A stretch of 32,678 nucleotides of DNA, from positions 1-32,678 of the forward strand of contig JAJRWJ010000240.1 in assembly GCA_024276805.1 (NCBI GenBank), in the 5' to 3' direction. Position 1 is the stretch's first letter. Every line of letters starts with the position of its first letter. Origin of the DNA: Gammaproteobacteria bacterium. GTDB lineage: Bacteria; Pseudomonadota; Gammaproteobacteria; Methylococcales; Methylomonadaceae. Made by a program: the position numbers and the translations under genes. A model generated the notes under the pieces. It was not told the origin of the DNA and made no database searches. It saw nothing but the letters and a program-made list of their open reading frames with translations. This document shows, one piece after another, positions 5,937 to 32,678 of this stretch.

Positions 5937-6291
5937 CGCGTAATCCTTCACAACCCCTCCTTTAACCCTAGTATAGCAGTTGGGATATGCCAGTTTTCCC
6001 ATACACCCCTGAATCTACCACAGAGCCCGCCTGATTCAATGGCGGAATCGACCATTTCGGCATTAATTCAGGCCGGAAGGGTAAAAAACACGCTCGCGCC
6101 CACGCCGGGTTTGACGTTAAACCATACGCAACCGTAACTGGCTGATTTCCTCGCGGTTAAAGGCTGCATAATGCGCCAGGCCACCTGTCCGGCCTCACTT
6201 CACAGAGAAATATAGAAATAGAGTATATATGTAGACATCATAACCGGTTTCTCATCACCATGGAGCAACACCGTAGTATTTTACTACAGTT

Positions 6292-8382: not shown

Positions 8383-8661
8383 CCCTTGAAGCCCTCACAT
8401 TTATTCTCTTGTATTGACCCGTGTGGCGAACGATACCCTCATCCATGAGGCCCATTGATACACCCTGCCCGCAAAAAGACACTTACCGGAAAACCATCGG
8501 CTTAACCGCATGATTCTTTAGGGGGCATCTATTCATTCTGGACGTTTCAGATTGATCGCCAGACCCGCCCCATCCAGGCAGTGACAAACTGGCGCCCAAA
8601 AGCCTGCACGCCAGCCCCCGTCTTTGCTATTCTTGGCCGTTTGATCGCAGACGCAGCCACA

Positions 8662-8979
8662 ATGATTGTTCTTCGCAGCACCGTCCTGTTCCTACTCTCC
8701 CTCTCACTTGCCTGTGCGACGGAAGTCGATACCCCCCAGACGGAGCAGGCGCTCCGTCAGTTGCTCGAAGACATCGATAAACAGGAGCAGGGTAACGACA
8801 GACAGCGGGCGGCCCTGCAACGCATTGAACAACAGATGGAGTGCAACTGGGCCCTGATCCGCAGCTATGAGATATGCACCCGGCTGTATCAGGATGAGCC
8901 GCAGAACCACTTGGTCTGCGTTAACAAGGCGAAGACAAACACCACACGTTGTCTCATCAACACAACCGACCAGCCCTAA
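8662..8979 (+). CDS. Small secreted (possibly lipo-)protein, hypothetical
   Basis: The internal ATG gives MIVLRSTVLFLLSLSLACATEV..., a signal-peptide-like N-terminus. The mature part is coiled-coil-like and carries 4 Cys. The track start at 8581 is a GTG with a non-signal N-terminal extension, so the start is uncertain. Confidence 0.5.
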   Translation: MIVLRSTVLFLLSLSLACATEVDTPQTEQALRQLLEDIDKQEQGNDRQRAALQRIEQQMECNWALIRSYEICTRLYQDEPQNHLVCVNKAKTNTTRCLINTTDQP

Positions 8980-10210: not shown

Positions 10211-10300
10211 TGGCGGAGAGGGAGGGATTCGAACCCTCGGAACGCTCGCGCGTTCACTTGATTTCGAGTCAAGCCCATTCGGCCTCTCTGGCACCTCTCC
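10211..10300 (-). tRNA. tRNA-Ser (anticodon CGA), long variable arm, encoded CCA
   Basis: The reverse complement reads GGAGAGGTGCCAGAGAGGCCGAATGGGCTTGACTCGAAATCAAGTGAACGCGCGAGCGTTCCGAGGGTTCGAATCCCTCCCTCTCCGCCA. The acceptor stem GGAGAGG pairs with CCTCTCC. The anticodon stem CTTGA/TCAAG carries loop CTCGAAA, giving anticodon CGA. The T-arm GAGGGTTCGAATCCCTC and a long extra arm are typical of class II Ser tRNAs. Confidence 0.9.
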
Positions 10301-16436: not shown

Positions 16437-17693
16437 TTATTTTGAAATTATCACGCGATTCCCGCTGGTCAGGTCTATTGCCACCACCACGTCCAGATCA
16501 GCATCAACCACTAAGGCGCGGCCGTTGGCGCTGTCCAGCGTAATGCCAAGCAGGTAGTTGAGTGCGTTCACCGCGTCTGGAGTTGTGGCATCGGAGAGAA
16601 TCGTGCGCGAGCCGGTGCTCAGATCAACGGCTATTACGGCGTCTAACGTAGCGTCCACCACCAGTGCTCGGCCATTGGCACTGTCTAGCGCAATGGTTCT
16701 TGGATAGTCGAACGGGTTCGAGGTGTTGGGGATTGTTGGACCGGAGAGAATGGTGCGCTCTCCTGTGGTCAGGTCCATCGCTACTATGGCATCCAAGCCA
16801 TCATCGGCAATCAGTGCCCGGCCATTGGCTGAATCCACCACGATACCTTCCGGAAAGCTGAATGGGTTCGCCGCACTGGGCGTTGTTGCATCGGAGATAA
16901 TTGTACGCATCCCGGTGCTCAGGTTGACCGCCACCACGGCGTCTAAATTGAGATCAACAACCAGTGCGCGGTTATTGGCGGTGTCCAGCGCGATAGCCAC
17001 TGGATTGACGAACGGATTGACGGCGTCCGGGGTGGTGGCATTGGAGAGTATGGTTCGTGCGCCAGTGCTTAGGTTGACCGCCACGATGGTGTCCTGAGGG
17101 CTATCAACCACCAATGCTCGGTCATTGTTGGTGTCTATTGCGATGGCACTGGCTCCCCCGAATGGGTTTGTTGTGTCCGGGGTGGTGGCATCGGAGAGCG
17201 TGGTGCGCTCTCCATTGCCTAAGTCCACCGCGATGACAGCGTCTAAATCGGAATCAATCACTAACGCCCGCCCACGTGGCGCATCCAGCGCGATGGCGGC
17301 AGGAATGTTAAGTGGGTTCATCCTATTCGGAACTGTCGTATCAGAAAGCAAGGTGCGTGCTCCGGTGGTCAGGTCCATCGTCAGCACGGCGTCGCTACTA
17401 TCAATCACCAGTGCCCGCCCATTGGCAGCGTCCAGAGCGATGGCTAACGGGAGGTTAATCGGATCCGTCGTGTCCGGGGTAGTGGCATCGGAGATAATTG
17501 TGCGTGCCCCGCTAGCCAGATCGACCGCTATCACGGCGGAGAAAAAATAATCAACCACCAGTGCGCGCCCGTTGGCGGTGTCAATCGTGATGCCCCTTGG
17601 AAGCCAGAATGGGTTCGACGTGTCGGGGGTTGTTGCATCGGAAAGCATCGTGCGCGCGCCAGAACTCAGATCCACTGCTAGCACGGCTCTCAA
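16437..17693 (-). CDS. Tandem-repeat (NHL/YncE-like beta-propeller-type) protein, 3' portion of a disrupted gene
   Basis: It has nine units of about 46 aa with consensus P.aIALD.ANGRALVVD..LDAVIAVDL.TGARTILSDATTPD..NPF. The track start is a TTG generated downstream of the frameshift. The stop is 13 nt upstream of the lipoprotein ATG, so the two form an operon. Confidence 0.7.
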   Translation of the reverse strand: MRAVLAVDLSSGARTMLSDATTPDTSNPFWLPRGITIDTANGRALVVDYFFSAVIAVDLASGARTIISDATTPDTTDPINLPLAIALDAANGRALVIDSSDAVLTMDLTTGARTLLSDTTVPNRMNPLNIPAAIALDAPRGRALVIDSDLDAVIAVDLGNGERTTLSDATTPDTTNPFGGASAIAIDTNNDRALVVDSPQDTIVAVNLSTGARTILSNATTPDAVNPFVNPVAIALDTANNRALVVDLNLDAVVAVNLSTGMRTIISDATTPSAANPFSFPEGIVVDSANGRALIADDGLDAIVAMDLTTGERTILSGPTIPNTSNPFDYPRTIALDSANGRALVVDATLDAVIAVDLSTGSRTILSDATTPDAVNALNYLLGITLDSANGRALVVDADLDVVVAIDLTSGNRVIISK

Positions 17694-18049
17694 ATCACCA
17701 TCGGTGACCAGTGCCCGGTCATTGGTTGCATTGCATCCAGCGTGATGGCACTCGGATTATTGAAAGGGGTTGTCCCATTCGGAATTGTCGCATTGGAGAA
17801 GATTGTGCGCGCGCCGCTGGTCAGATCCACAGCGATCACGGCATCCAGGTTGGCATCGACCACCAGCGCCCGGTTATTGGTTGCATCCAGCGCGATGGCG
17901 ATTGGGTTGATGAAGGGATTTGTCGCATCCGGGATTGTTGCGTTGGAAAGAATCGAGCGAGCACCGCTGGTCAGATTTACCGCCACCACGGCGGCCAAAT
18001 CGGAATCAATGACAAGCACCCGGTTGTTGGCAGTTGACGCATATTCCAC
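17690..18049 (-). CDS. Same tandem-repeat protein, 5' portion (two more repeat units), ending in a frameshift tail
   Basis: A GTG start gives MEYASTANNRVLVIDSDLAAVVAVNLTSGARSILSNATIPDATNPF...AITLDA, then the aberrant tail MQPMTGHWSPMVI*. There is no signal peptide and no ATG. The frame opens only 26 codons upstream, after a TAA. Confidence 0.6.
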   Translation of the reverse strand: MEYASTANNRVLVIDSDLAAVVAVNLTSGARSILSNATIPDATNPFINPIAIALDATNNRALVVDANLDAVIAVDLTSGARTIFSNATIPNGTTPFNNPSAITLDAMQPMTGHWSPMVI

Positions 18050-18231: not shown

Positions 18232-18495
18232 ATGATGAAAATACTCAACGCTAGTGATGCCAAACGCGAATTCGGTGAAGTCCTGATCAGGGCACAGCAT
18301 GGCCCTGTTGGCATTAACCGCAATGGCAAGCCCATTGCTGTAGTGATCTCGGCGGCAGAATATGCCCAGCTTGAGGCACTAAAAAAGGCACATCTAGAAA
18401 AGGCAATCGAGGATGGAATCTCTGACTTGCAAACCGGCAAGGTCAGCAATGGTAAAACTGTGATCGACAATTTACGCAAACGGATAAACAGCTAA
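18232..18495 (+). CDS. Phd/YefM-family type II antitoxin
   Basis: MMKILNASDAKREFGEVLIRAQHGPVGINRNGKPIAVVISAAEYAQLEAL matches the Phd/YefM N-terminal pattern (sequence a+..f.e.l......pv.i.r.gkp.aVvls.eeYe.L). The ParE-like ORF starts 3 nt downstream. Confidence 0.85.
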   Translation: MMKILNASDAKREFGEVLIRAQHGPVGINRNGKPIAVVISAAEYAQLEALKKAHLEKAIEDGISDLQTGKVSNGKTVIDNLRKRINS

Positions 18496-18498
18496 GCC

Positions 18499-18801
18499 GT
18501 GACAAAGCCCCGCCCCCGCTATCAATTCACAGAAAAATCCGAACGTGATCTTGAAGACATCATCGACTATACCGTCCAACAGTGGGGAGTTTCTCAGGCC
18601 GATACTTACCTTGATAGCCTGGAAACACGCGCTCAGCTCCTTGCTGAAAACCCCGACCTGGGGGTCAAACGGGAAGCGCTTTTCGAGGGACTACTCAGCT
18701 TTCTTTATGAAAGCCATATCCTGTACTACATGAAACGATCCGGCGGGATCACGATTGTACGAGTACTCCATCAAAACATGGATCCGATGAAGTACCTCTG
18801 A
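18499..18801 (+). CDS. parE: ParE/RelE-superfamily type II toxin
   Basis: A GTG start gives YQFTEKSERDLEDIIDYTVQQWGVSQADTYLDSLETRAQLLAENPDLGVKREALFEGLLSFLYESHILYYMKRSGGITIVRVLHQNMD, the canonical ParE pattern (A..DL..I..Y....wg..qA..Y...l......L...P..G, ...i.I.rvLH..MD). Confidence 0.85.
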   Translation: MTKPRPRYQFTEKSERDLEDIIDYTVQQWGVSQADTYLDSLETRAQLLAENPDLGVKREALFEGLLSFLYESHILYYMKRSGGITIVRVLHQNMDPMKYL

Positions 18802-19276: not shown

Positions 19277-19509
19277 GGTGCTCAGTAAGTTGTATTGAGT
19301 GCGGTTAACGATATCGTAACAGACCAACGACATCGGTTTACTGACAGCCCTGGTCATCACAGCGTGCCTAATTCAAGTGTTGGTATTGCAGGGGAAAATG
19401 GACAACCCCAAGAAGCTGGAATGCTGAATTTGGCTAATTATCAATCGTATTGACAATTAGCCAAAATGAGCTACATTACCGATATCATGAACGAATCAGA
19501 GCGAACCTG

Positions 19510-20688
19510 ATGTATATCCCCCGAGAGGCTGAGGCCAGACTTCAGCGCTTCGCCAGCGGCTACCCAGTGGTCGTAGTCACCGGTCCACGCCAGTCCGGCA
19601 AATCTACGCTGGTGCGCCATGCGTTTCCTGAACACCATTACGTATCCCTTGAGGATCTCGATCAGCGGGACTTTGCCGAAAGTGACCCCCGAGGCTTTCT
19701 GAACCAGTTTACCGAAAATGCAATTCTGGATGAGGCGCAACGCTGCCCTGCCCTGTTTTCCTATCTGCAGACACGCATAGACGAGCGGCAACGGCCCGGC
19801 GAATTCATCCTGACAGGCTCACAACAGTTCGACCTGCTATCGGGCATCACACAAAGTCTGGCCGGCAGAGCGGCATTGCTTACCCTGCTTCCCATGACAT
19901 ACGGCGAATTAAAGCGCACAGGACAAATCAACCGCCATCTCGACCAAACCCTTTTTTATGGGGCGTACCCTCCCATCTTTGATCGCAGACTCGAGCCACA
20001 TCCGTGGTATGGGAATTATGTGCGCACTTACCTGGAACGCGATGTCCGGCAATTGATTAACGTGCAGGATCTTGGGACATTTCAACGGTTCCTGAAATTG
20101 TGCGCGGGTCGAACCGGACAACTCCTCAATCTTTCCTCGCTGGCCAATGACGCCGGCATTACGCACAACACGGCCAAAGCCTGGATATCTGTGCTGGAAG
20201 CGAGTTACATCGTACATCTGCTGCCACCTCACCACCAGAATTTCAACAAACGTCTGGTTAAGACACCCAAACTCTATTTTCTGGATACAGGTCTTGCGAC
20301 TTGGTTGCTCGGTATTCAGAACATGGACCAACTGGCCACCCATGTTCAACGCGGTGCATTATTCGAAACCTGGGTCATCAGCGAATTACTCAAGGCCCGC
20401 TATAATGCGGGCGAGGCCTCGAACCTTTACTTCTGGCGTGATCGATCAGGACACGAGGTAGACCTGCTGATTGATCATGGAACACACCTGTCACCACTGG
20501 AAATAAAATCCGGTCAGACCATCAACCGGGATTATTTCAAGGGATTGGATTTCTGGCGAAAACTGGCAGGTGAGACCGCCGGGAAAGCATGGCTAATTTA
20601 CGGCGGCGACACCCTGCAGACTCGCTCCGACGTCACTATCCTGCCATGGCATAAAATCGATCCCGAGCAGATTGTGATGCCTGCGTGA
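19510..20688 (+). CDS. AAA-family ATPase with DUF4143-type C-terminal domain
   Basis: MYIPREAEARLQRFASGYPVVVVTGPRQSGKSTLVRHAF contains the Walker A. ILDEAQR is the Walker B. The C-terminal ...LLNLSSLANDAGITHNTAKAWISVLEASYIVHLLPP...KLYFLDTGL...GALFETWV...YFWRDRSGHEVDLL is the AAA_14/DUF4143 layout. The track start at 19450 is an upstream TTG; I prefer ATG 19510. Confidence 0.85.
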   Translation: MYIPREAEARLQRFASGYPVVVVTGPRQSGKSTLVRHAFPEHHYVSLEDLDQRDFAESDPRGFLNQFTENAILDEAQRCPALFSYLQTRIDERQRPGEFILTGSQQFDLLSGITQSLAGRAALLTLLPMTYGELKRTGQINRHLDQTLFYGAYPPIFDRRLEPHPWYGNYVRTYLERDVRQLINVQDLGTFQRFLKLCAGRTGQLLNLSSLANDAGITHNTAKAWISVLEASYIVHLLPPHHQNFNKRLVKTPKLYFLDTGLATWLLGIQNMDQLATHVQRGALFETWVISELLKARYNAGEASNLYFWRDRSGHEVDLLIDHGTHLSPLEIKSGQTINRDYFKGLDFWRKLAGETAGKAWLIYGGDTLQTRSDVTILPWHKIDPEQIVMPA

Positions 20689-20953: not shown

Positions 20954-21232
20954 ATGGCTGAAACACAGAACCGTGCAGCACCGATTAACATCCGCGCCCG
21001 CACAACGCAGCGCAACCTGATCGATAAAGCAGCAGCGATGCTCAACAAGAATCGCTCGGACTTTATGCTGGAAGCCGCTTGCCGTGAGGCTGAGAACGTG
21101 TTGCTCGACCAACGGCTCTTTTTGGTGGACGACAAAACCTACAAGACATTCGCAACGCTCATTGATGCGCCGATCAAAGACAACCCTGCGCTGCGAAAAT
21201 TGTTACATGACAAGGCGCCATGGGAGAAATAA
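20954..21232 (+). CDS. DUF1778 (TacA-like, RHH) type II antitoxin
   Basis: INIRARTTQRNLIDKAAAMLNKNRSDFMLEAACREAENVLLDQRLFLVDDKTYKTFATLIDAP matches the DUF1778 pattern. GGAG lies 9 nt upstream. An imperfect palindrome, GATATACAATTATGTATATTGATC, lies at about 20905-20928. Confidence 0.85.
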   Translation: MAETQNRAAPINIRARTTQRNLIDKAAAMLNKNRSDFMLEAACREAENVLLDQRLFLVDDKTYKTFATLIDAPIKDNPALRKLLHDKAPWEK

Positions 21233-21714
21233 CAGCGCCGGAGCCCATTACGGAAGCTCACCTCATAGAATCGTTCTCATGCTGTGTCCCGGTACTGGAT
21301 GAATGGCTTAAACGCCATGCGCTCAAGAACGAAGTTTCCGGTGCATCCCGCACCTTCGTCGTATGCCAGGACAAGAAGGTCATTGGTTATTACGCCCTGG
21401 CCACAGGGAGTATCGAACATCGTGACGCCCCGGGAAAAATACGCCGCAATATGCCGGATCCGATTCCGGTCATGATACTCGGAAGACTGGCCATCGACCA
21501 GCAGTGGCAACAGGCGGGTCTGGGTCGGAATCTGCTGAAGGATGCGCTGTTGCGTTCACTGTCGGTATCAAAACAGACAGGCATCAGAGCATTACTTGTT
21601 CATGCACTCTCGCAAGATGCAAAACGTTTCTATACCGGTAACGGGTTTATCGAATCCCCGCTTGACTCGATGACCTTGATGGTCGCCTTGCAAGATGCAG
21701 CACATTGCCTATAG
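21220..21714 (+). CDS. GNAT-family acetyltransferase toxin (TacT/AtaT-like)
   Basis: It overlaps the DUF1778 gene by 13 nt. FSCCVPVLDEWLKRHALKNEVSGASRTFVVC...VIGYYALATGSI...PVMILGRLAIDQQWQQAGLGRNLLKDAL...GIRALLVHALSQDAKRFYTGNGF shows the GNAT Q/RxxGxG/A motif in the arrangement typical of DUF1778-linked toxins. Confidence 0.85.
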   Translation: MGEITAPEPITEAHLIESFSCCVPVLDEWLKRHALKNEVSGASRTFVVCQDKKVIGYYALATGSIEHRDAPGKIRRNMPDPIPVMILGRLAIDQQWQQAGLGRNLLKDALLRSLSVSKQTGIRALLVHALSQDAKRFYTGNGFIESPLDSMTLMVALQDAAHCL

Positions 21715-21769: not shown

Positions 21770-22756
21770 GTGATACGACTGAAGCCGGACTATTTTTCAT
21801 TACCCGAAATCGAATGTGATGCTTACCGGCTCCACCTGACGTCAGAAGATGACTTCCGAGTCCGGCAAACTCTCCTCAACGGATTGTTTGGGATTGCGGT
21901 CAACAACCCGGAAGAACTGGATGCAGCACTGGAAACGTTTGATGACAGCCAGTATCTGTTGCTGAATAGCACCCTGCTACCATTTCAAGGCATTGGTAAA
22001 GATTACTTCTTCCTGAACGAATATCTCCCCAAAGATATCACCCTGCTCGATTTCGATACGGTCGGGGATTATGCGCGTGACGATCACCGCTTTCAGGAAC
22101 AGGCGCGCAAACAGGAGGATCCAGATTACCCTCCACGCCCCTACCGGGGTGATATTCACCGCTGCTGGGCAAGGCTGGAGATTGATGGCGCTTTCCATTA
22201 TGCCGATATCAGCTCCCTGGCGGGATATCTGACCGATGTGCTGGACGAAGCAGGGCTCGAACGCATTGACGAACTCATTCCCTGCCAGTACGTCAATGGC
22301 CCGAACCATGGCAAGCGGGAAGGCAAAGGATATGTCTACGACAAACGCCTCGATGCCGGCGGATTGGAAGGCCAGTTGCAGGCACTACGAGATCGTTACT
22401 ACGCCTATATGCAGGAAAGATACGAAGCACTGCTTGATCGGTTCAATACATCCCCGACAACACGCGTATACATGCGACGTCAGATACGGGATACGGAATC
22501 ACACATGGACTTCGTTTTCTCCGACGCCACGGCACTGGAAGCCGTACGCTTCCGACACTTCGTCAGCGACTGCCGGCATATCGCTGACGATCCAGCAAAA
22601 GTTGACGCTCTCATCGAGCAGGAAAAGCGCCTCGCGCTCGATTTTCTTGCCAACACTTACCAGGACATCATGGACAACTTCGATCCCACAATCGTGAAAC
22701 TGCACCGGAAACACAAGGTCATCCTGGCGAATGAAAAGTTGAAGGATCTGCTATGA
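21770..22756 (+). CDS. Hypothetical protein (328 aa), no motif recognised
   Basis: A long ORF with plausible composition, on the same strand and in the same repeat-bounded cassette as the DUF1778/GNAT pair. It has a GTG start without a clear SD, so the start is uncertain. Confidence 0.55.
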   Translation: MIRLKPDYFSLPEIECDAYRLHLTSEDDFRVRQTLLNGLFGIAVNNPEELDAALETFDDSQYLLLNSTLLPFQGIGKDYFFLNEYLPKDITLLDFDTVGDYARDDHRFQEQARKQEDPDYPPRPYRGDIHRCWARLEIDGAFHYADISSLAGYLTDVLDEAGLERIDELIPCQYVNGPNHGKREGKGYVYDKRLDAGGLEGQLQALRDRYYAYMQERYEALLDRFNTSPTTRVYMRRQIRDTESHMDFVFSDATALEAVRFRHFVSDCRHIADDPAKVDALIEQEKRLALDFLANTYQDIMDNFDPTIVKLHRKHKVILANEKLKDLL

Positions 22757-23115: not shown

Positions 23116-23397
23116 ATGAAACTGAGTGAGTCGGTCAAACCCATCAGCTACCTGAAAAGCCACACCGCCGAGGCACTGCGAAGCGTCAGCGAGGGGCAAC
23201 GTACTATGGTGATCACTCAACACGGCGAAGCCCGAGCAGTGCTCCAGGATATCGTCAGTTATGAACAAACCCAGGAATCGCTGGCGTTGCTCAAGATGCT
23301 CGCCCAAAGCTCCAAAAGCGTTCAGGAAGGCCGCAGCAAGCCCCTCAAGAAAGCCTTTGCGGATGTTCGCAAGCAGATCCGGGAACTCGCTGAGTGA
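23116..23397 (+). CDS. Phd/YefM-family type II antitoxin
   Basis: SVKPISYLKSHTAEALRSVSEGQRTMVITQHGEARAVLQDIVSYEQTQESLALLKML fits the pattern. It has a 4-nt GTGA overlap with the downstream toxin ORF. Confidence 0.85.
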   Translation: MKLSESVKPISYLKSHTAEALRSVSEGQRTMVITQHGEARAVLQDIVSYEQTQESLALLKMLAQSSKSVQEGRSKPLKKAFADVRKQIRELAE

Positions 23398-23720
23398 AAC
23401 ACTATCGTGTCCGGCTTACCGAGGATGCGGAGCGGGACCTGATCGAAATCTACCGCTACATTGCTTTCCACGGCTCGGTGGAGAATGCGGATTACGTACT
23501 GGATCAACTCGAGTCCCTGTGCTCGCGGCTTACCGAACTGCCCGAGCAGGGCCACGTTCCGCCCGAGCTGGATCGAATCGGTGTAACGAACTATAGGGAA
23601 GTCAACTTCAAGCCGTATCGTGCCATCTATGAGGTGATCCGGCAGGACGTTTTCATTCATTGCATCCTCGATGGCCGCAGGGATATGCCATCGTTACTTG
23701 AGCGGCGCCTGATTCGCTAA
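23394..23720 (+). CDS. ParE/RelE-superfamily type II toxin
   Basis: A GTG start gives YRVRLTEDAERDLIEIYRYIAFHGSVENADYVLDQLESLCSRLTELPEQGHVPPEL...YREVNFKPYRAIYEVIRQDVFIHCILDGRRDM, the ParE/RelE pattern. Confidence 0.85.
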   Translation: MKHYRVRLTEDAERDLIEIYRYIAFHGSVENADYVLDQLESLCSRLTELPEQGHVPPELDRIGVTNYREVNFKPYRAIYEVIRQDVFIHCILDGRRDMPSLLERRLIR

Positions 23721-23963: not shown

Positions 23964-24293
23964 CTAAGCCACCTTCCGGGCTTTGACTTCCAAGTATATG
24001 CCTTCCTGCTCCTGCTCCTGCAGATAACCGATCACCGCAAACAGATTACTCGCCTGGGGGTTCCCTTTTGGCCCGAACATGCGCATGAGACTCTTTCTCG
24101 ACTTGTCAAAACCCCGGGACAGTTCCTCGAACCCGATCGTCGCATTGATATAGTCGCGCAGCACCGCCTTGCCGGTATCGACGTCACCGGCAAGCAGACA
24201 TTCGACCCCCTCTTGCAGCAAGGCCTTGCGAAACGCGGGATCCCCTTGGGCACGTGCCTGAATGGTATCCTTAAAATCTTTCGTCAGAGCCAT
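23964..24293 (-). CDS. HTH-type antitoxin (antidote partner of a COG3657/HigB-RelE-like killer protein)
   Basis: MALTKDFKDTIQARAQGDPAFRKALLQEGVECLLAGDVDTGKAVLRDYINATIGFEELSRGFDKSRKSLMRMFGPKGNPQASNLFAVIGYL is a pattern I recognise from antidote proteins encoded downstream of killer genes. The remnant of such a killer gene lies immediately upstream. Confidence 0.7.
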   Translation of the reverse strand: MALTKDFKDTIQARAQGDPAFRKALLQEGVECLLAGDVDTGKAVLRDYINATIGFEELSRGFDKSRKSLMRMFGPKGNPQASNLFAVIGYLQEQEQEGIYLEVKARKVA

Positions 24294-24465: not shown

Positions 24466-26028
24466 TCAGCAACAGATCATGCTCAACAGCGCGCGCGCCC
24501 TGCTCATCCCAACATAGTGAAGCGAACGCAGGGTCTCGCTATGCCCAGGTCTAGGCATATCGACAAGAACAACTACCTCGCTCTCAAGCCCTTTGAAATC
24601 CCCAACCTGCGCAAAACCGATGGCCTGACGATTCATGTTACGAGGTGAGGCATCGTCCAGAACAGAGATTGAATCTCGCAAATCCTTGGATAACGAACAC
24701 GTCCATGACTGTGCAAATGGAAAGGGCGAAAGTATGACGATGTCACCCGGATTAAATCCCTCGCCATCCACGAGACCGCGCAGCTCTTTCTCAAAAGCCT
24801 GGATAGCGCCGTCTGTGTCGGCAACACGAACTTCACGTACAGCTGGGCCATCACCGACCCCGGAATTACCCACATCAGCACCCAAGGCGTCTTGTATCTG
24901 TTGCAGGATTTGCAATGAGTTCCGGCAATTCGTCCTCAGTGGGATTCGCGCCGGGCCACAACTTTCCAGATACTCATAGGCATCGGGCACATAGGATCCG
25001 CACAGGCCGGATTGATTGTTGGCGTCATGAAAAAAACACCAACATCCTTCGCTTATTCCACCATATAAACAATTATCCAGTCGCTCCAGCGCATCCATAT
25101 TCAAAATATCCTGACCTTCATCCACGATCAATGCATCGAATTTTTCGATGCCGGCTCGCCTTGCAGCGACATGGATCGAATCCGCTAGGCTGACCGTCAG
25201 ACCCGGTACGGCGTTCCGTTCCAGGAATCGCTTGAGCCACGGCGAATGGCAGGCCAGCGCGGTTTTCATTCCAGATGCGCCCCAGCGCTTCGCCAGTTCA
25301 AGCGCCAACATTGTTTTCCCTGTCCCAGCACCTCCGGAACATATTACCCGCGGGTTGGCTTCGACGACATCGATCAGCCTTAGCTGATCCTCTGTCAGCC
25401 GAGCGATACGTGTTTCGACATCATGAGCGGGAATGTGCAATGGTACGACCGCCTCAAAATCAGGGCGTAAGTGTTGCTGCAACACATTCAACTGTTTAGG
25501 GCTTGCGACTGGCTTGCGACTATCCTTCGCGCGCCAATACCTTATGAATCGTTCCAGCCACTTTTCGAATTGCCTGAAGTCCCGACCGTCCGCGAGAACG
25601 GCGCGATCCCACTCCGCGCTATCGGGAAGTTGCTCAACACCGGGCATGACAACACCGTAACCGACCACAAAGGCGCGAGAGATCGAAGCGGGTAGTTTTT
25701 TCCGTAGACCATGCAAAGCACCCTCTGCCTGCTTAAACGGTGACTCCCGCAATCGCTCGGATTCTCCATAACGGTTCTTCGTTCCCCAGATGCCATCGTG
25801 GCACGAGACACGACCACCTTTGATCTCAAGTACGAAAAGGCCATCCGGCCCACATACGATGAAATCGATTTCACCGAACCGCTTGTATTCATGCCGCGGG
25901 AGGTTAAGTGAGTGCATAGCAAACCAGCCATTTTTATCCGGCGAGGAAAACGTCGCCCTCAGCTGGTCGAACACATTTTTTTCGGCTTTGCTGGGTGTGC
26001 GCAGTGGCTGGCGGGGAATCATCCGCAT
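24466..26028 (-). CDS. NERD-domain / SF1 (UvrD-like) helicase fusion protein
   Basis: NERD: EKNVFDQLRATF...WFAMHSLNLPRHEYKRFGEIDFIVCGPDGLFVLEIKGG. Helicase: VICSGGAGTGKTMLALELA (Walker A), ALIVDEGQDI (Walker B), TNCRNS, FKGLESEVVVLVD, LHYVGMSRARALL. Confidence 0.85.
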   Translation of the reverse strand: MRMIPRQPLRTPSKAEKNVFDQLRATFSSPDKNGWFAMHSLNLPRHEYKRFGEIDFIVCGPDGLFVLEIKGGRVSCHDGIWGTKNRYGESERLRESPFKQAEGALHGLRKKLPASISRAFVVGYGVVMPGVEQLPDSAEWDRAVLADGRDFRQFEKWLERFIRYWRAKDSRKPVASPKQLNVLQQHLRPDFEAVVPLHIPAHDVETRIARLTEDQLRLIDVVEANPRVICSGGAGTGKTMLALELAKRWGASGMKTALACHSPWLKRFLERNAVPGLTVSLADSIHVAARRAGIEKFDALIVDEGQDILNMDALERLDNCLYGGISEGCWCFFHDANNQSGLCGSYVPDAYEYLESCGPARIPLRTNCRNSLQILQQIQDALGADVGNSGVGDGPAVREVRVADTDGAIQAFEKELRGLVDGEGFNPGDIVILSPFPFAQSWTCSLSKDLRDSISVLDDASPRNMNRQAIGFAQVGDFKGLESEVVVLVDMPRPGHSETLRSLHYVGMSRARALLSMICC

Positions 26029-26030
26029 GG

Positions 26031-27644
26031 TTAATTACCTTCGTTTCCCTGTTCATCTTCTTCTTTCGCGCTCAGCAGTTTGCGTATGTCGGATTCGATC
26101 TGGGGGGGAATCAAAGGCCATTTACCCAAACGGCACAAAAATGAGGCCATATCTACTTCCTCCGTGACCCTCACCCTTCCTGGGAACACCATCTGCAAAC
26201 CTTTTCGCTCGAAGCTTTCAGGATAATCACCTTCCGTCAAAGTGATGTGTGTCTGAATACAGTTGTTCCAACTGCATTTTCGCGCAAGCTCCAAGGCTAC
26301 GTCTCTCTGTATGCTGTTCCACTCACCGCCGGGCGAAGTAAAAAGTTCTCGCAAGGGTTCCGGACGTGCTGGCGCATCCAAGGCAATCTTATCGCCTTGT
26401 TTCCGATGCTCAGCGTCTGCCATCCGATAAGTCACATAGGCAGAGAAGTCCGAATTTCGAAGATCGCGCGGCAACTGCAGCCAGCTATCGCGCACGCCGA
26501 ACAGAATGCCGGCAAGAATATACTCGGCGTCGCTCAACAGTGGATGGAAAAATTCGAGCAAGTCCGTGCAATGATCGCGCAGGCAGAATAGAAGCAAGGG
26601 CCTCGATAGAGACCCCTCGTGACGCTCAAGCAGTTCGGTGACTGTTCCGCCACCGAGGCCGAGGCAACTTCGCATGTCCGCAATCAGTCGCTCCAGTCGT
26701 GCCCGGAATCCCATTTCCTGCAGCTGATCAAGCTGATCCTCCAGATACGCCAGCGCCACATCGACGACGGCTGTTTGAGGTCGCTCCTGCATCTGTGCGT
26801 CGACCAGCGATTGGACAACGCCCCAAAATAGCCTTGCACGGGTATCTGCATGCCTGGATATCTCATTCCTATTCAGCCAGTCAGGAAGCTCAGCCAGGAT
26901 GGGGTCGCTTTGGACCAAGTCATTATCTGTGTCGCGTATGGCACCTGTTATAAAGCGAAAGGCCGCAAGACCCAGATCGCTGCGGTTGGCGATGTGGTAC
27001 AACATCACAAACATGCCGCCAATCGCCTGTCCCAGCGCAGGGGGACTATCATTGCTGTCCTCAAGCAATTGTCCTTGTGACCCCACCGGCGGCCATATCA
27101 CATCTGTAGCAGCGTGGAATAACGATTCGTCAACCTCGATCCGATGGGGGGACAGATCGACATTGGAGACGTCCCTGGCAGCGCTTTCAAATGCTTGCAT
27201 GTCCCCGGGTGAGCGAAAGCTGATGCTAGATAGCAAAGTCATCGGCAGTGGCGCGCGAATCACGATGGCAATGTCGTCCTTGCGTTTTCTCACGGTTGGC
27301 GAAGCGACATCACGCATACCGCCATCCCGCGACAGCATCCGAACGGGGCCGGATAGATTGCTCAAACTGAATGATGCAACGCAGGGCAGCAAATGCTTAC
27401 GCTCGCTGGTTGCATGACTCAAAGCGCCAGCTGGAATATCAACATTATTCCGGAGCAAGGGAATCCATCCAGGAGAGACGCCCAATGAATCGGAATAATG
27501 CTTACCTCGGAAACCAGCGGGTCCCATTACCATACCGGCGGCCAGCATGTAGAGCATGTTCTGGTGATTGGTTACCAGATGCCATGTGTGTGTGGATTTG
27601 CAACCTCTTCGCGGCTTCTTCGGAGTACTATTTTTCGTAACCAT
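26031..27644 (-). CDS. Hypothetical protein (537 aa), no recognisable motif; member of the helicase operon
   Basis: A long ORF spaced 3 nt from the upstream gene and 2 nt from the downstream gene. It has a basic N-terminus (KKPRRGCK), then HTWHLVTNHQNMLYMLAAGMVMGPAGF. I see no P-loop, HKD, HNH, PD-(D/E)xK or methyltransferase motif. Confidence 0.7.
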   Translation of the reverse strand: MVTKNSTPKKPRRGCKSTHTWHLVTNHQNMLYMLAAGMVMGPAGFRGKHYSDSLGVSPGWIPLLRNNVDIPAGALSHATSERKHLLPCVASFSLSNLSGPVRMLSRDGGMRDVASPTVRKRKDDIAIVIRAPLPMTLLSSISFRSPGDMQAFESAARDVSNVDLSPHRIEVDESLFHAATDVIWPPVGSQGQLLEDSNDSPPALGQAIGGMFVMLYHIANRSDLGLAAFRFITGAIRDTDNDLVQSDPILAELPDWLNRNEISRHADTRARLFWGVVQSLVDAQMQERPQTAVVDVALAYLEDQLDQLQEMGFRARLERLIADMRSCLGLGGGTVTELLERHEGSLSRPLLLFCLRDHCTDLLEFFHPLLSDAEYILAGILFGVRDSWLQLPRDLRNSDFSAYVTYRMADAEHRKQGDKIALDAPARPEPLRELFTSPGGEWNSIQRDVALELARKCSWNNCIQTHITLTEGDYPESFERKGLQMVFPGRVRVTEEVDMASFLCRLGKWPLIPPQIESDIRKLLSAKEEDEQGNEGN

Positions 27645-27647
27645 AAC

Positions 27648-28835
27648 CTACTTCCTGACGAGTATACTTGGATCAGTGGGCAGCAATCCATCCACGACGG
27701 GGCAAACATTACCAGTACGGAGAAGGATGACCTGTTCACGGGCACGCGCCACCATCACATAAAATCTTGACTTGAGCACATGCGGGTCGCGTTTGGGTTG
27801 GTGCTGGTCGATGTCGGCCAGGATGGTGATATCAAACTCCAGGCCTTTGCTGGACTGGGCGTTTATGATCATGAGGCCGCCCTGACCGAAGTTCAGTAAT
27901 TCCTGCTGGCCTGAAACAAAGGTCTGGATAGGCGGTTTGTCATTGTCGAGCTTTGGATTGGCACGAAGAAGCGCGTCATTAAATTTCGTCCGCACTTTAT
28001 TGTCTGGAGTAATGATCCCAATAAGCTTGCGTGGGTTTCGGTCGCTCAACTGGAGAATATGATCTGCAATTTCCGCCGGCGTTGCCGTGTTTTCCCTACC
28101 ATATGTCCATAGCTCGGGCATCATTGCGGCAGGTTTGACATGGGGCAGGTCAGGCCTTGGACTGGCCGGGTCGGCTGGGTAAAAGTGCTGGGCAAGCAGC
28201 GCGATAGGACGCGTGTTCCGGTAGTTGGTTTTCAGTTCCAGCGTGTTGCCCGGTTCGATTGCGAGAACATTCTCGATATCCTGGCGTGAACTGCACTTGT
28301 CGGGGTGAATCTGCTGGTTCTGGTCGGCCGCCACATAGAAATTCTCGAAGCCAAGATTGATCAGCGTTCGATAAAAGACTGGCGGCATATCCTGCCCCTC
28401 ATCGATAACCAGAAATTTATTGCTTTGATCTTCTATATTATCCAGAGATTGAACCTGTTGTTCGACGGCCTCCCAATCTATGGGGCGATAACCTCCAGGT
28501 TTCTCGGGGTCATGCGTTGGGATGACGGCGTCAAAAAAATGTTTGTAAATACGGCGAAACCAAGAGTCCCAAGTCTTGGCGGAGAATGTTTGATCGCTGC
28601 CAAATAGATGTCGGTTTGAATGATCCAGCAAGTGATTATATACGAGAGCTCTGTACGTCCTGTCGTTCTGGGCAAGGCGTCGCGCCCGCAACAGCGCCAC
28701 TACCGACTTTCCGGTGCCAGGACCACCGACAATCAGATGTTGCCCCTCAAGCGGTAATGCCAGCGCCTCATCCTGATCCTTGTTCAGGTCATGAATGCCG
28801 GGGAGGCTGAATCGGCGGGCGCGGTCAACGGGCAT
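27648..28835 (-). CDS. Minimal UvrD-like SF1 helicase/ATPase (395 aa)
   Basis: LIVGGPGTGKSVVALLRARRL (Walker A), FLVIDEGQDM (Walker B), QNQQI, TNYRNTRPI, SSKGLEFDITILAD, FYVMVARAREQVILL (motif VI-like). No accessory 1B/2B-size insert is evident. Confidence 0.85.
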   Translation of the reverse strand: MPVDRARRFSLPGIHDLNKDQDEALALPLEGQHLIVGGPGTGKSVVALLRARRLAQNDRTYRALVYNHLLDHSNRHLFGSDQTFSAKTWDSWFRRIYKHFFDAVIPTHDPEKPGGYRPIDWEAVEQQVQSLDNIEDQSNKFLVIDEGQDMPPVFYRTLINLGFENFYVAADQNQQIHPDKCSSRQDIENVLAIEPGNTLELKTNYRNTRPIALLAQHFYPADPASPRPDLPHVKPAAMMPELWTYGRENTATPAEIADHILQLSDRNPRKLIGIITPDNKVRTKFNDALLRANPKLDNDKPPIQTFVSGQQELLNFGQGGLMIINAQSSKGLEFDITILADIDQHQPKRDPHVLKSRFYVMVARAREQVILLRTGNVCPVVDGLLPTDPSILVRK

Positions 28836-28837
28836 AT

Positions 28838-30661
28838 TCAGGTTATCCCAAAAAATGAAGGCAGTCCGTTGGCGGCATCGTCCTTGACGAAGCCGCGGTC
28901 CAGCAAAGTATTGCCGTATTCGCAGGCAGGCTCGGGTACCAACGCACAGGCATGACAGGCGGCGCGATTCAGCAAGCCTGGTCCTTGACCTTCATGCTCG
29001 CTGCAAACTGGGTCAAGCGAACACCAGTGTGAATGCTCCAGTGCTCGAATCAGGATGCCTAGAAAGCGCCGGGGTTCGCTCAGTTCAGCCAGGCCACCCA
29101 GTGAACCGGCGATGTCGGGAACGGCGACATGGATGAGGATACCGGCCATGGGCTCCGGTACATTGGCGCAATAGATACGCTCAATCAGCGACGCCGCGGG
29201 ATAGCCACCCTCGGACTCGATTTGTCGCATCAGCAGGTGTGACAACGTATGCAATAACATGAAGCGTGTTGTCAGCGGATTGGGGTCATCGCGACCGGAT
29301 TGGGCAAATCGGGGAAGGAGTCGATTTAGTCGCGAAACAACCGCCGGTGTTTGCTCCCACACCTTGAGCCGGTCCTCATCGAGCGCGAGGAAGATGCCCT
29401 CTCCATACAACTCAATGGCTGGCAACCAATCGGATTTCCCTACGATGTCCGGCGGCACTATTTCTTGTCCGCCCAAGCGGGTAAAGCCCTTGAATACCTT
29501 CACCGCCTTGAGGCGATCCACGCGGACAAGGTGACGGACGCCATGGACAATTTTCCGTTCATCAGTATCCAGGTCGACCGCCACCCCCAGTTCACGCCAC
29601 TCGTCACTTTTGTTGCGAGTCACCAAGTCTTCGTCCTCGCGCTGGTCGGGCAACACCTCCAGGAATGCTTTAAACTCGCTTTCCCGCAATTGCCCTGGCG
29701 TAAGGTTCTCGCCATACAATGGGTAGCCGCGGGCAAGATCAGCCAATGCGGTTTCGATATCGTTGGGTGTACAGCGATATTCCGTCGCCAGCGTCCGTAT
29801 GATGCCTTTCCTCGCCAATGGCGTTCGCGCACCGTCTATGCGACTACGATCACCGGAATTGCGATATAGGCGATCCACGACGGTTCCCTTGCGTACACGG
29901 GATTCCGGTGGAATCACCAGAACGGATTCAGCGACAGGCGCGTAAACCCGCGTGTCATTGATCACCAGCACTTGCGCGTAGTCTTTGTCACCTTCTTCCG
30001 TGACCTCTATTGGCGGAACCAGATCGTCTTTGGTCCATGGCTGCATCCGGCCCTGGCCGAAGCCCACTCGATCATCACCACGAAATCGGGTTTCAGCGCG
30101 GCAGGCGCCGCACCGTAAAATGCGCTCTTCGTAGCCACGTTCCATTAACCGTAATTGGTCTTGTACTTTGCAGTTGCGCTGTGTGGGGTCGCGCGCGCCC
30201 TGATGCGCGAGAAAATGCCACGGCACATCGGCAAGGTATCCCTCTGGATGTGCGAGCACCCAGGTCACCTGCTCCATCTTCGGGTGACGCTTGCAATCTT
30301 GATGATTACAACGGGGTGCGTGATCGCGCTGATCGTTCCGCCACGGCCAACGATACATGGCGCCACAGGCCGGGCAGCGCATCCAGGAGGGGAATCGCGT
30401 CGCCGGCACACTGGTGCCATCTACCTGTCCATTCGCCAGCTCTTTCGCTACAGGCGGCTCGCGCAGTTGCTCCTCGATGCCCAGCGCGGCACGCACGCGC
30501 TCCACATACGGAATCAGCTTACCGGCGGAGAGACCAGAGCGATCCGTCCATTGCCGGGTGTCCTGAACGACCACCAGCCCATTCACCCCACGCACGATGG
30601 CTCCGACACCACTATGGCCAAGCAGGTGTGACAGGCGTATCGGAATCAGTTCATTGGCCAT
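28838..30661 (-). CDS. DUF1998 (MZB) protein, DrmB-like
   Basis: N-terminal IRLSHLLGHSGVGAIVRG...VVVQDTRQW, a central CPACG...C..QDC zinc-ribbon-like segment, and C-terminal HTLSHLLMRQ...CSLDPVCSEHEG...LNRAACHACALVPEPACEYGNTLLDRGF. The last is the DUF1998 Cys cluster ending in N..LDR. Confidence 0.85.
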   Translation of the reverse strand: MANELIPIRLSHLLGHSGVGAIVRGVNGLVVVQDTRQWTDRSGLSAGKLIPYVERVRAALGIEEQLREPPVAKELANGQVDGTSVPATRFPSWMRCPACGAMYRWPWRNDQRDHAPRCNHQDCKRHPKMEQVTWVLAHPEGYLADVPWHFLAHQGARDPTQRNCKVQDQLRLMERGYEERILRCGACRAETRFRGDDRVGFGQGRMQPWTKDDLVPPIEVTEEGDKDYAQVLVINDTRVYAPVAESVLVIPPESRVRKGTVVDRLYRNSGDRSRIDGARTPLARKGIIRTLATEYRCTPNDIETALADLARGYPLYGENLTPGQLRESEFKAFLEVLPDQREDEDLVTRNKSDEWRELGVAVDLDTDERKIVHGVRHLVRVDRLKAVKVFKGFTRLGGQEIVPPDIVGKSDWLPAIELYGEGIFLALDEDRLKVWEQTPAVVSRLNRLLPRFAQSGRDDPNPLTTRFMLLHTLSHLLMRQIESEGGYPAASLIERIYCANVPEPMAGILIHVAVPDIAGSLGGLAELSEPRRFLGILIRALEHSHWCSLDPVCSEHEGQGPGLLNRAACHACALVPEPACEYGNTLLDRGFVKDDAANGLPSFFGIT

Positions 30662-30664
30662 AGC

Positions 30665-32678
30665 TCATAGCGCCTTGAGCAGGGCAGTATTTTCGACGTT
30701 GCGCATGGATTGCAAGGTCGGCCACAGGCCGCGAATCTGATCATCATGGTTGTACAACAGGCGATCACGCCCAGTCTCCTTGTCCTTGACTTCATACTCC
30801 AATTTTCTTGAAGCTATCTGGCAGCGTTCGGCCTCATTCTGCCATTCGGCAACCAGGGCATCGATATGCCTGTTCACCTCATCGATCTGATCGGGAGCCG
30901 ACAATCCACAGCGACGCTTGAGTTGTTCAACGGCTTTGGCAACTTGCGAATCGTCTGGATCAAAGTCAGTGGCTGCGCCATTACTCAACAAACCAACCCT
31001 ACCGTGTCGCATTACGATAACCAGCGCCGCGTGGAGGGCGCGCAAGCGAGCCTGATAGGTATAGGGCGTGACGCTGGTGGGTTCGACGAAACGGTAGAAG
31101 GCTTCATGGTAAGGGCGGAAGCTCTCGTAGTGTGACAGGCTGCGCGCCTGCTCTCGGTAGTAGTTGGCGAACACCACGCCAGGTACCTCGCTGCGCCCCA
31201 CGCGGCTACTGGCCTGAATATATTCTGCCGTGGTCAATGGCTGGCCGTTGATGATCATCAGCGCCAATCGAGCCACATCAAGTCCGACCGAGATCATATT
31301 GGTGGCCAGTACGGCGTCCAGGCAGCCATCCTCTTCGCGTGTCTTGCTCAACCGGGCAAAAATCTCTGCATTCTGCGCCGCCGTCTGCAAGCTGGTGAGC
31401 TGGGCAATGCTCGGCGTCGAGCGTTCTTGTTTCTTTGCCTTTTCGTCTTTCTGAGCCTGCGCATCCGTTGTACCAGACAATAACCGCATGAAATCGCGCA
31501 CATCGCTGGCAAAAGCCGTGTGACTGTTGCCAACGCCCTTGAGGCTGCCGTGATACACCACCTGCGTCCACCAGGCATCCAGCAGTTCCTGAGCATCCTG
31601 GTCACTCTCGAACAGCACCTGCGGTGCCAATAGCAATGCCGCCGCCAGTGGTGCCAGGCACTGCTGGCGGTTCAGCATCGGCGCCAGATAGCCTACGTAG
31701 ATTCGGCCCGGGCGTTGCTCAAGCGAAACAGTACGGGCGAAATAGGCGTCGTCGCAGTTCAGTCCCGGCGGCGGAAACACGGCGACTTCGCGTCCATACA
31801 GTCGTTTCACCTGCTGGTCCGCCATGCGGATGGTGGCCGTCGATGCGATGTACTTCGGATACACGCCGCGCACTTGAAGCACGGTATCGATAGCGGCTTC
31901 GTACAGACCGGCCACCGAACCCAACGCACTGGCAATCAGGTGCAATTCATCCTGAATGATGATTTCGGGTGGACGATATCGTGTACCGCCGAAAAATGTA
32001 TTGGCACGTTCTTCCCAGGCCAGCCTGGCGAATTTGTCCACGGTGGCGACCAGCATGGTCGGGGCTTCGGTGTACAAAGCTTCGTCAACGACATTGCAGG
32101 GCAATACCCCACCCGGGAACGCGCCAAAGTCGCAGCCCGGATTCCGGCAGAGGAAATGGAAGTGCTGTGTGGTGCTGTCATAGTTGTGCGCGGCCTCGAA
32201 GTCTTGTCCACACCAGGGACAACGATCGAGTACAAGCGCGGGCTTTTCACCCGTCGCACGCGCCTTGTTTACCAGCTCGGCAGCCTTCTGGAAGGTGTTT
32301 GGGCTGGTGGCCTCTCCCACCCACATGCCAACGGTGATCGGTGTCGATCCGAGATCATCGCGTTCACGCCGGATCAGTTCCAGCGCACAGATCAGGCGGG
32401 TTGCGCGTATGAACTGATCGCGGGTCAACAGGCGCAGAGTATAGCGCATCAGGATAGCGGTTCCGCCCCCGGTATCGGAATGATGCAGCCGACGCAGTAC
32501 GATCAGCAAGGCGATCAGGCCGAGGTAGGCTTCGGTCTTACCGCCGCCCGTCGGGAACCAGATCAGGTCAACCGTATCGCGGAATTCGCTGTCCTCGTTC
32601 GCCGTGGATTCCAGCGTAGTTAACAGGAAGGCCAACTGGAATGGACGCCAACGATAGGCATCGTCAACGCGGGACTTG
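30665..32678 (-). CDS. DrmA-like SF2 DExH helicase, partial (5' end beyond the right window edge)
   Basis: The frame stays open to the window edge (...KSRVDDAYRWRPFQLAFLLTTLES). The track's M at 32635 is an internal TTG. Motifs: WFPTGGGKTEAYLGL (motif I), IIIQDELHLI (motif II), ASTATI (III), TNMISVGLDV, QASSRVGR (VI). A CPWCGQ...CRNPGC insert is also present. Confidence 0.85.
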   Translation of the reverse strand, partial: KSRVDDAYRWRPFQLAFLLTTLESTANEDSEFRDTVDLIWFPTGGGKTEAYLGLIALLIVLRRLHHSDTGGGTAILMRYTLRLLTRDQFIRATRLICALELIRRERDDLGSTPITVGMWVGEATSPNTFQKAAELVNKARATGEKPALVLDRCPWCGQDFEAAHNYDSTTQHFHFLCRNPGCDFGAFPGGVLPCNVVDEALYTEAPTMLVATVDKFARLAWEERANTFFGGTRYRPPEIIIQDELHLIASALGSVAGLYEAAIDTVLQVRGVYPKYIASTATIRMADQQVKRLYGREVAVFPPPGLNCDDAYFARTVSLEQRPGRIYVGYLAPMLNRQQCLAPLAAALLLAPQVLFESDQDAQELLDAWWTQVVYHGSLKGVGNSHTAFASDVRDFMRLLSGTTDAQAQKDEKAKKQERSTPSIAQLTSLQTAAQNAEIFARLSKTREEDGCLDAVLATNMISVGLDVARLALMIINGQPLTTAEYIQASSRVGRSEVPGVVFANYYREQARSLSHYESFRPYHEAFYRFVEPTSVTPYTYQARLRALHAALVIVMRHGRVGLLSNGAATDFDPDDSQVAKAVEQLKRRCGLSAPDQIDEVNRHIDALVAEWQNEAERCQIASRKLEYEVKDKETGRDRLLYNHDDQIRGLWPTLQSMRNVENTALLKAL

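Follow-up and report, generated by a model that had tools for sequence, protein, structure and literature searches.

A five-gene cassette of DrmA, DrmB, an SF1 helicase, an orphan protein and a NERD-helicase: a candidate methylation-independent defence system derived from DISARM

The stretch of DNA analysed here, called the window, comprises 32,678 nucleotides of contig JAJRWJ010000240.1 (assembly GCA_024276805.1) from a gammaproteobacterium of the family Methylomonadaceae. At its right end, five minus-strand open reading frames (ORFs; genes A to E, positions 24466-32678) encode a DrmA-like superfamily 2 (SF2) helicase, DrmB, a small superfamily 1 (SF1) helicase, an orphan protein (D), and a NERD nuclease fused to an SF1 helicase (Table 1). 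It was found that these five genes are one autonomous cassette, which starts at DrmA and lacks a methylase, DrmC or SNF2 partner, because the gene order is constant between loci, the flanking genes are unrelated, and the similarity between loci is confined to genes A to E. We consider it rather likely, from homology and gene linkage, that the cassette is a self-contained and mobile anti-phage or anti-plasmid system derived from DISARM, of which only DrmAB has been kept and in which there is no cognate methyltransferase.

An earlier note on this DNA had described five ORFs packed 2-3 nt apart, and the same coordinates were recovered in the ORF listing of the window, with gaps of 2, 3, 2 and 3 nt. 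The reading frame of gene A is open to the window edge (translation of 30665-32677), and so its 5' part is cut by the window; by comparison with the DrmA of about 1063 amino acids (aa) in full loci, about 393 N-terminal aa lie beyond the edge. The sequence motifs quoted in the note were all found in the translations, namely FPTGGGKTEAYL, DELH and QASSRVGR in DrmA and AACHAC...CEYGNTLLDR in DrmB, as were the Walker A and Walker B motifs of the two proposed SF1 helicases, C and E. Searches with the hidden Markov models of Pfam, PADLOC and NCBIfam upheld every domain call.

Table 1. Features of the cassette and of its surroundings in the window.
Feature	Coordinates	Strand	Length, basis or remark
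Gene A, DrmA-like SF2 (YprA-family) DExH helicase	30665..32678	-	C-terminal 670 aa of ~1063 aa
Gene B, DrmB (OB-CON-DUF1998/MZB, zinc-binding DrmA partner)	28838..30661	-	607 aa
Gene C, minimal UvrD-like SF1 ATPase/helicase	27648..28835	-	395 aa
Gene D, orphan protein	26031..27644	-	537 aa
N-terminal domain of D, residues ~17-165	27150..27596	-	Tentative ADP-ribosyltransferase-like fold
Gene E, NERD nuclease fused to SF1 helicase	24466..26028	-	520 aa
NERD domain (PD-(D/E)xK) of E, residues ~13-122	25663-25992	-	Pfam NERD
RelE/ParE-family toxin remnant, C-terminal ~47 codons	24296-24439	-	TIGR02683 positions 60-94 of 95, E 1.3e-8
Antidote-like ORF after the toxin remnant	23964-24293	-	No Pfam/NCBIfam match
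Phd/ParE pair	23116-23720		Pfam
328-aa ORF between TacA/GNAT and Phd/ParE	21770-22756	+	No Pfam/NCBIfam match
TacA/GNAT pair	20954-21714		Pfam
DUF4143/AAA_14 ATPase	19450-20688	+	Pfam
Phd/ParE pair	18232-18801		Pfam
MalT-like STAND NTPase regulator, 750 aa	11383-13635	+	NCBIfam MalT E 1.2e-54, well below cut-off; Pfam AAA_16
tRNA-Ser	10211-10300		14 kb from cassette

Judged by their profile matches, genes A and B encode true homologues of DrmA and DrmB. Gene A matched the PADLOC DrmA model with an E value of 1.6e-189. The full-length DrmA orthologue of another locus (L002, 1063 aa) scored 821.6 bits against the NCBIfam model DISARM_DrmAS, and because this score is under the equivalog cut-off of 950, the DrmA of the cassette is classed as a divergent DrmA subfamily. 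Gene B scored 331.7 bits against NCBIfam DrmB_fam (cut-off 240) and matched Pfam MZB (E 3.4e-7). The DrmA/DrmB core proposed in the earlier note was borne out by matches to the Serratia DrmAB complex (PDB 7S9V): the L002 orthologue matched DrmA (7S9V_A) with E 1.3e-126, and gene B matched DrmB (7S9V_B) with E 2e-52. The GGGKT, DELH and QxSSRVGR motifs of DrmA were invariant in 29-30 of 30 loci, and the DrmB cysteines that were checked (C547 and C580), together with the NxLLDR motif, were invariant in 36 of 36 loci.

The distribution of the cassette was evaluated by searching protein D against one genome per GTDB species, which yielded 32 loci in Gamma-, Alpha- and Betaproteobacteria, Desulfatitalea, Spirochaetia and Pirellulaceae (at least five phyla or classes). 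The order A-B-C-D-E was constant in all 32 loci as far as the contigs reach, and the identity of proteins A, B, C and E to those of the window was 65-95%. DrmA is the first conserved gene in full loci, and it is preceded by unrelated genes in the loci with enough upstream sequence. ORF clusters of the flanks were common to at most 4 loci. In a Pfam census of the flanks (106 ORFs of 200 aa or more, taken within 6 kb from about 30 loci), no family occurred more than three times, no DNA methyltransferase or PLD family was among the recurrent families, and SWI2_SNF2 was found in just two ORFs; a conserved sixth gene, sought in this census and by clustering of the flanking ORFs, was not found. At the nucleotide level, comparison of L002 (3754-13183) with 15 other loci gave similarity that sets in at most about 35 nt ahead of the DrmA start codon and ends with the stop codon of gene E; repeats, a promoter region or mobility genes common to the flanks were not seen. 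A scan for promoters and terminators past gene E gave sites that were not above chance.

The position of DrmA as the first conserved gene in full loci disposes of a caveat in the earlier note, that a methylase or SNF2 gene might lie upstream beyond position 32678. It also bears on the possibility that the cassette is an ordinary class 1 or class 2 DISARM, the methyltransferase, DrmC and DrmD or DrmE of which would lie past the window edge or at another place in the genome. This possibility draws on the fact that the window cuts DrmA and leaves its upstream region outside, and on the high scores of DrmA against the PADLOC and NCBIfam DISARM models. However, the DrmA score stays below the equivalog cut-off (821.6 compared to 950 bits), the genes preceding the ~1063-aa DrmA are unrelated, no methylase, PLD or SNF2 family is recurrent in the 106 flanking ORFs, and the slots after DrmB are always occupied by C, D and E. 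An ordinary DISARM is hardly credible on this evidence.

The linkage of the five genes extends to much more distant relatives. An exhaustive HMMER search gave a D family that counts 366 representatives at 50% identity and includes members of only about 25% identity, and seven distant or variant D homologues were traced to their contigs, of which four (with D 24-28% identical) were aligned at the DNA level. Upstream of the distant D genes lies a UvrD-like gene of about 390 aa, and downstream a NERD-helicase of about 520-530 aa; on the longer contigs, genes for a helicase (about 950-1085 aa) and an MZB protein (578-620 aa) were found further upstream. Cassette genes were present on all seven contigs as far as each reached, with only a cut upstream gene and the NERD-helicase visible on one short contig. 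Homologues of D and of the NERD-helicase do co-occur with MZB (DUF1998) genes in other genomes, as asked in a neighbourhood search proposed with the earlier note, and the description there of non-DISARM partners holds, C, D and E being strictly linked to DrmAB in the 32 loci and in the distant metagenomic relatives.

The cassette is widespread in marine and sediment bacteria. Its patchy distribution, combined with a protein identity of 80-95% across phyla, points to recent horizontal transfer, and we conclude that it is widely transferred and moves between phyla. Several copies are damaged: in L017 the DrmB gene is interrupted by about 2.6 kb (~6211-8810), L023 keeps the last 35 residues of E only (~11700-11830), the D genes of L026 and L027 match only up to residue 430, and L022 and L032 are gapped at the start of E. 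Such decay is in keeping with an accessory system that is dispensable and costly.

The catalytic parts of the proposed effector arm were found in genes E and C. Gene E matched Pfam NERD (E 2.4e-12), AAA_30 and UvrD_C_2, and over its full length it matched the PADLOC model of an RT-associated NERD-helicase (RTasNERD-Hel; RT, reverse transcriptase) with E 1e-39; partial matches to Nhi and AbiO were also obtained in PADLOC. The nuclease residues D55, E68 and K70 and the Walker A and B motifs of E were invariant in 30 of 30 loci, and E is the predicted effector. Gene C matched the Pfam families UvrD_C_2, SLFN-g3_helicase and UvrD-helicase and the helicase part of the PADLOC 'NERD+UvrD' model (E 1e-14). 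It also gave partial, weak matches to GajB (best E 1.2e-11 over 57 residues, PADLOC) and weak matches to HelD/HelR. The Walker A motif GGPGTGKS, the Walker B motif DEGQDM, the NYRN and KGLEF motifs and R364-A365 of C were invariant in 37 of 37 loci, with the exceptions of Y205 (kept in 33 of the 37) and N207 (kept in 36). At 395 aa, gene C looks like a motor core only.

The cassette was compared with known systems, beginning with DISARM, for which classes 1 and 2 (Ofir et al. 2018) and the DrmAB structure 7S9V (Bravo et al. 2022) served as the reference. The cassette has in common with DISARM the adjacent, co-oriented and split DrmA and DrmB genes with conserved ATPase motifs and zinc cluster, whereas three of the five defining features of DISARM are absent. 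There is no DrmC, as no PLD match was found in the five proteins and none is recurrent in the flanks; the cassette contains neither a DrmMI (N6-adenine) nor a DrmMII (C5-cytosine) methyltransferase, the source genome beyond the window being judged through the other loci; and C, D and E gave no match to DrmD (SNF2, class 1) or DrmE (class 2) in PADLOC. In their stead are a minimal SF1 ATPase, an orphan protein and a NERD-SF1 protein. Since there is no methylase in the cassette, cognate methylation cannot mark self DNA. The suggestion in the earlier note that NERD may stand in the place of the PLD nuclease is consistent with the absence of a conserved PLD gene beside the cassette.

Other operons have been described around YprA-family helicases. 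In TALON, which is reported to be rare and largely confined to Chloroflexota, the fused, ARMADA-like YprA helicase is accompanied by a NERD nuclease, a TATA-binding-protein-like gene and a TPR-CSD protein; in ARMADA, the partners of the YprA helicase are a PglX-like methyltransferase and a BrxHII/RapA-like helicase, with a further UvrD/GajB-like helicase in type II (Bell et al. 2025, bioRxiv 10.1101/2025.09.15.676423). The present cassette resembles both in being a defence-type operon around such a helicase, TALON also in having a NERD-type PD-(D/E)xK nuclease, and ARMADA type II in having a UvrD-like helicase. It differs in that the helicase of TALON and ARMADA is fused and Druantia-like, whereas here it is split into DrmA and DrmB. 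Furthermore, no TPR, CSD or TBP domains were detected in the cassette with Pfam, and a BrxHII-like helicase and a PglX-like methylase are neither in the cassette nor recurrent in the flanks. The same authors mention 'many uncharacterized DISARM-like classes' and do not describe this gene set, and no entry with NERD or UvrD was found in their supplement (Bell et al. 2025).

The likeness to other systems is limited to single genes. Nhi and AbiO, each a single-gene system, share the nuclease plus SF1 helicase architecture of E. E is also like the RT-associated NERD-helicase of DRT systems, but that protein is paired with a reverse transcriptase and the cassette has none; RVT_1 follows E only in L035 and L036, where it belongs to a separate cluster. 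Gabija differs in that C has only the weak partial match to GajB and there is no GajA (ATPase-TOPRIM/OLD nuclease) in PADLOC searches. With RecBCD/AddAB there is an analogy only, in that E is an SF1 helicase with a nuclease domain, C a second, small SF1 motor and D a presumably non-catalytic partner; the similarity is at the level of generic SF1 motifs, and the present set is linked to DrmAB. In line with the earlier statement that the gene set could not be assigned to a named system, none was found in PADLOC-DB v2.0.0, Pfam, NCBIfam or the open-access literature, where papers on DISARM, ARMADA, CoCoNuT, Shield and Cas4 were obtained and none of them has this gene set. Within these four sources, the gene set is undescribed.

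Protein D sets the cassette apart most clearly from these systems. The D family is absent from Pfam, NCBIfam and PADLOC-DB v2.0.0, and D itself, searched as a single protein or as a profile of close homologues, had no match in Pfam, PADLOC, NCBIfam or PDB sequences, in agreement with the earlier note, which had recognised no motif in this 537-aa protein. PADLOC searches of 62 diverse D homologues gave just two stray single matches. In all 21 complete loci the identity was lower for D than for any other of the five genes (mean identity 66.7%, compared to 83.7 for A, 84.8 for B, 79.2 for C and 81.6% for E), and in distant loci its identity was 24-27%, as opposed to 35-57% for the other genes. 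D is the fastest-evolving subunit of the cassette, and its linker (residues 166-202) is the most variable region within it.

An AlphaFold2 model of D (pLDDT 63, pTM 0.53) predicts an alpha/beta domain at residues ~20-158, the disordered linker, a helical domain at residues 203-456 and a poorly modelled C terminus. In some D homologues the N terminus is lengthened by about 150-220 aa of disordered or helix-turn-helix-like sequence; the extension of P0128 (L038 7938-10133) is internally repeated, low in complexity and rich in proline, glycine and alanine, and that of P0150 consists of a short helix-turn-helix-like segment followed by an acidic, serine-rich linker. A Foldseek search of the full-length model against viral structures (BFVD) gave nothing significant. 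The helical domain (26277-27038) gave weak structural matches to ADP-ribosylglycohydrolases, which were not significant and had no sequence support: a Mimivirus ARH in BFVD (probability 0.80, E 0.18) and PDB 3g9d (E 1.2), an entry listed as 'glycohydrolase' that we take to be DraG. The predicted likeness of the helical domain to ADP-ribosylglycohydrolases is a lead only.

The N-terminal domain of D raised the question of whether D is related to ADP-ribosyltransferases. Among the 62 diverse D members, 18 matched Pfam PF22546 2CompART, the 2-component system ADP-ribosyltransferase domain (best E 1.4e-5), and three members that were examined singly scored 15-18 bits relative to the gathering score of 27, all within the N-terminal domain. 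When the full-length D model was compared with the PDB by Foldseek, Thermus DarT (7omx/7omv) came first, with E 8e-3, probability 1.00 and a target TM of 0.42-0.45, and all other matches had E >0.5. The D motif WxLVTNHxNLxYMLAAG can be aligned without gaps with the DarT motif IYHITHIDNLxxILxxG (T25/T15, N29/N19 and G37/G27), and N26, N29, K48, D52, E81 and N161 of D are invariant or nearly invariant polar residues. For DarT and 2CompART, a possible shared fold and N-terminal motif lie below significance, and DarT differs in lacking the ~250-aa helical region and the C-terminal region of D. A part for this domain in binding nucleic acids or NAD would be speculative.

These observations, together with the weak glycohydrolase matches of the helical part, are what favours a different explanation of the cassette, in which D is an active, divergent DarT-like ADP-ribosyltransferase and the true effector. 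Single strands of foreign DNA would be exposed by the three helicases and ADP-ribosylated by D, and replication would be blocked, with the helical domain of D or the NERD-helicase being accessory or self-protective. DarT acts on single-stranded DNA, which is what helicases generate. However, in the non-significant alignment with DarT, the counterpart of the NAD-binding residue His13 is a hydrophobic position of D (L/F/M at 23), and that of the catalytic residue Glu160 is position 126, where the members of the family have A/L/V/I. When D was compared by hhalign with alignments of 3 and 34 DarT sequences, the probability was <1%, always with one local alignment of D 114-164 to DarT 151-198. A model of the N-terminal domain only (pLDDT 73) retrieved no ADP-ribosyltransferase from the PDB by Foldseek (all E >0.2), a profile search with this domain toward annotated ADP-ribosyltransferases gave fragments of the D family only, and DarT PF14487 matched just one of the 62 D members, weakly (E 0.21). 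The 2CompART matches themselves are those of modest score given above, and no describing paper was found for this Pfam family in the open-access literature. Lastly, DarTG has the DarG macrodomain, whereas no macrodomain (DarG) or NADAR antitoxin gene is present in the cassette. We regard D as the effector as unlikely.

The link of D with DarT is given less weight because the N-domain-only model gave no ADP-ribosyltransferase. Our assessment leans towards a degenerate ADP-ribosyltransferase-like fold for the N-terminal domain, which is probably not an active canonical enzyme. It is decidedly unlikely that D is a nucleic-acid ADP-ribosyltransferase with a non-canonical active site, possibly with the helical part as a glycohydrolase-like safety catch. 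If this were true, invading DNA unwound by the helicases would be ADP-ribosylated and then cut, which would be a new immune strategy, and an active ADP-ribosyltransferase in D would explain recognition of self and non-self by DrmAB without methylation.

For the preferred explanation, a methylation-independent defence system derived from DISARM, the following mechanism may be proposed. DrmA and DrmB would form a split YprA-type SF2 translocase that combines sensing with translocation. The original work on the loading of DISARM DrmAB is reportedly that of Bravo and colleagues from 2022. As summarised in PMC10270631, DISARM DrmAB is reported to load on single-stranded DNA or 5' overhangs, and by homology the DrmAB of the cassette would do likewise on foreign DNA that enters the cell or is being replicated. 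A signal or substrate would then pass from DrmAB to the effector of E, probably with C, and E and C, whose invariant catalytic motifs are intact, would unwind and degrade the DNA. D may be a sensor, adaptor or regulator without catalytic activity, by which specificity would be set or the nuclease held in check; this is the weakest step of the proposal. Because no methylase is linked to the cassette, self and non-self would be discriminated by DNA structure (free ends or single-stranded DNA) or by a phage-derived trigger and not by a modification mark. The invariance of the catalytic motifs of A, C and E and of the zinc cluster of B, which extends to the distant loci, is consistent with selection on activity.

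The neighbours of the cassette are in part of defence type, in the window (toxin-antitoxin modules and the DUF4143 ATPase) and at some other loci. Schlafen AlbA_2 and ResIII genes were found in the flanks of other loci in the Pfam census. In L035 (9873-12977) and L036 (9693-12797), a gene with RVT_1, an SMC_N/AAA_15 ATPase gene and a 219-aa gene lie directly downstream of a distant cassette; this looks like a retron or Septu-type defence cluster, and since the reverse transcriptase and SMC_N/AAA_15 cluster adjoins the cassette, these two loci are taken to be a defence island.

The same cassette could instead be a module for DNA repair, recombination or replication restart, or a maintenance function of a mobile element, like the YprA relatives MrfA/MrfB. 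One branch of the YprA-family helicases serves DNA repair (Bell et al. 2025), housekeeping genes (his operon, purL, guaA) stand beside many cassettes, and two SF1 motors with a PD-(D/E)xK nuclease resemble RecBCD/AddAB. Against such a module speaks that A and B group with DISARM DrmA and DrmB in the split helicase/DUF1998 arrangement, which is consistent only in the DISARM branch and sporadic elsewhere (Bell et al. 2025, bioRxiv 10.1101/2025.09.15.676423). A repair module is also at odds with the patchy distribution and recent horizontal transfer across phyla, the one fast-evolving subunit, the several decayed or interrupted copies, the defence-associated NERD-helicase as the closest full-length model of E, and the defence-type neighbours at some loci. 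Taken together, these points make a repair or maintenance function very unlikely.

Several observations weigh against the interpretation of the cassette as a mobile defence system. Every function assigned here is read from homology and gene linkage. Many cassettes lie among housekeeping genes and not in recognisable defence islands, and no integrase or other mobility gene was found among the window ORFs scanned. The role given to D is a guess, and its ADP-ribosyltransferase likeness consists of sub-threshold matches and one Foldseek match, which were reproduced by neither the domain-only model nor the profile-profile comparison. Finally, how a nuclease system without a methylase would avoid damage to self DNA is unexplained.

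Within the window, the earlier note had described a truncated toxin gene at the 3' border of the operon, and the RelE/ParE-family remnant was found there, abutting the stop codon of gene E. This remnant probably marks the boundary of cassette insertion, and it suggests that the cassette entered a toxin-antitoxin locus or took the place of part of one. Of the four toxin-antitoxin loci claimed for the surroundings, three pairs (two Phd/ParE and one TacA/GNAT) were upheld by Pfam. The description of the locus as a tRNA-proximal island proved weak, with the tRNA-Ser at the distance given in Table 1 and no integrase among the ORFs scanned. Both families of the ATPase, DUF4143 and AAA_14, recur in two ORFs that flank the cassette at other loci, which may be a coincidence or a loose association.

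The remaining part of the window is ordinary chromosome, with a ParA-like ATPase, GGDEF/EAL regulators, MscS, a TadA-like deaminase and the MalT-like regulator, the gene of which adjoins the tRNA-Ser and the TadA-like deaminase. Two minus-strand ORFs of 418 and 119 aa at 16437-18049 contain the same NHL/beta-propeller-like repeat, ALVVD...AVIAVDL...GARTILSDATTPD, in different frames, as if a single gene for a repeat protein had been split by a frameshift or by an error in sequencing.

The mechanism of DISARM is poorly understood, and the role of its nuclease and the gating of DrmAB by methylation are open questions. The cassette is a natural variant in which DrmAB alone, and DrmAB immunity without a modification mark, may be tested. 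Because PADLOC v2 is blind to the cassette, current censuses of defence systems probably miss it. Furthermore, D represents a large unannotated family, and it may add a degenerate ADP-ribosyltransferase fold to the sensor domains of immune systems.

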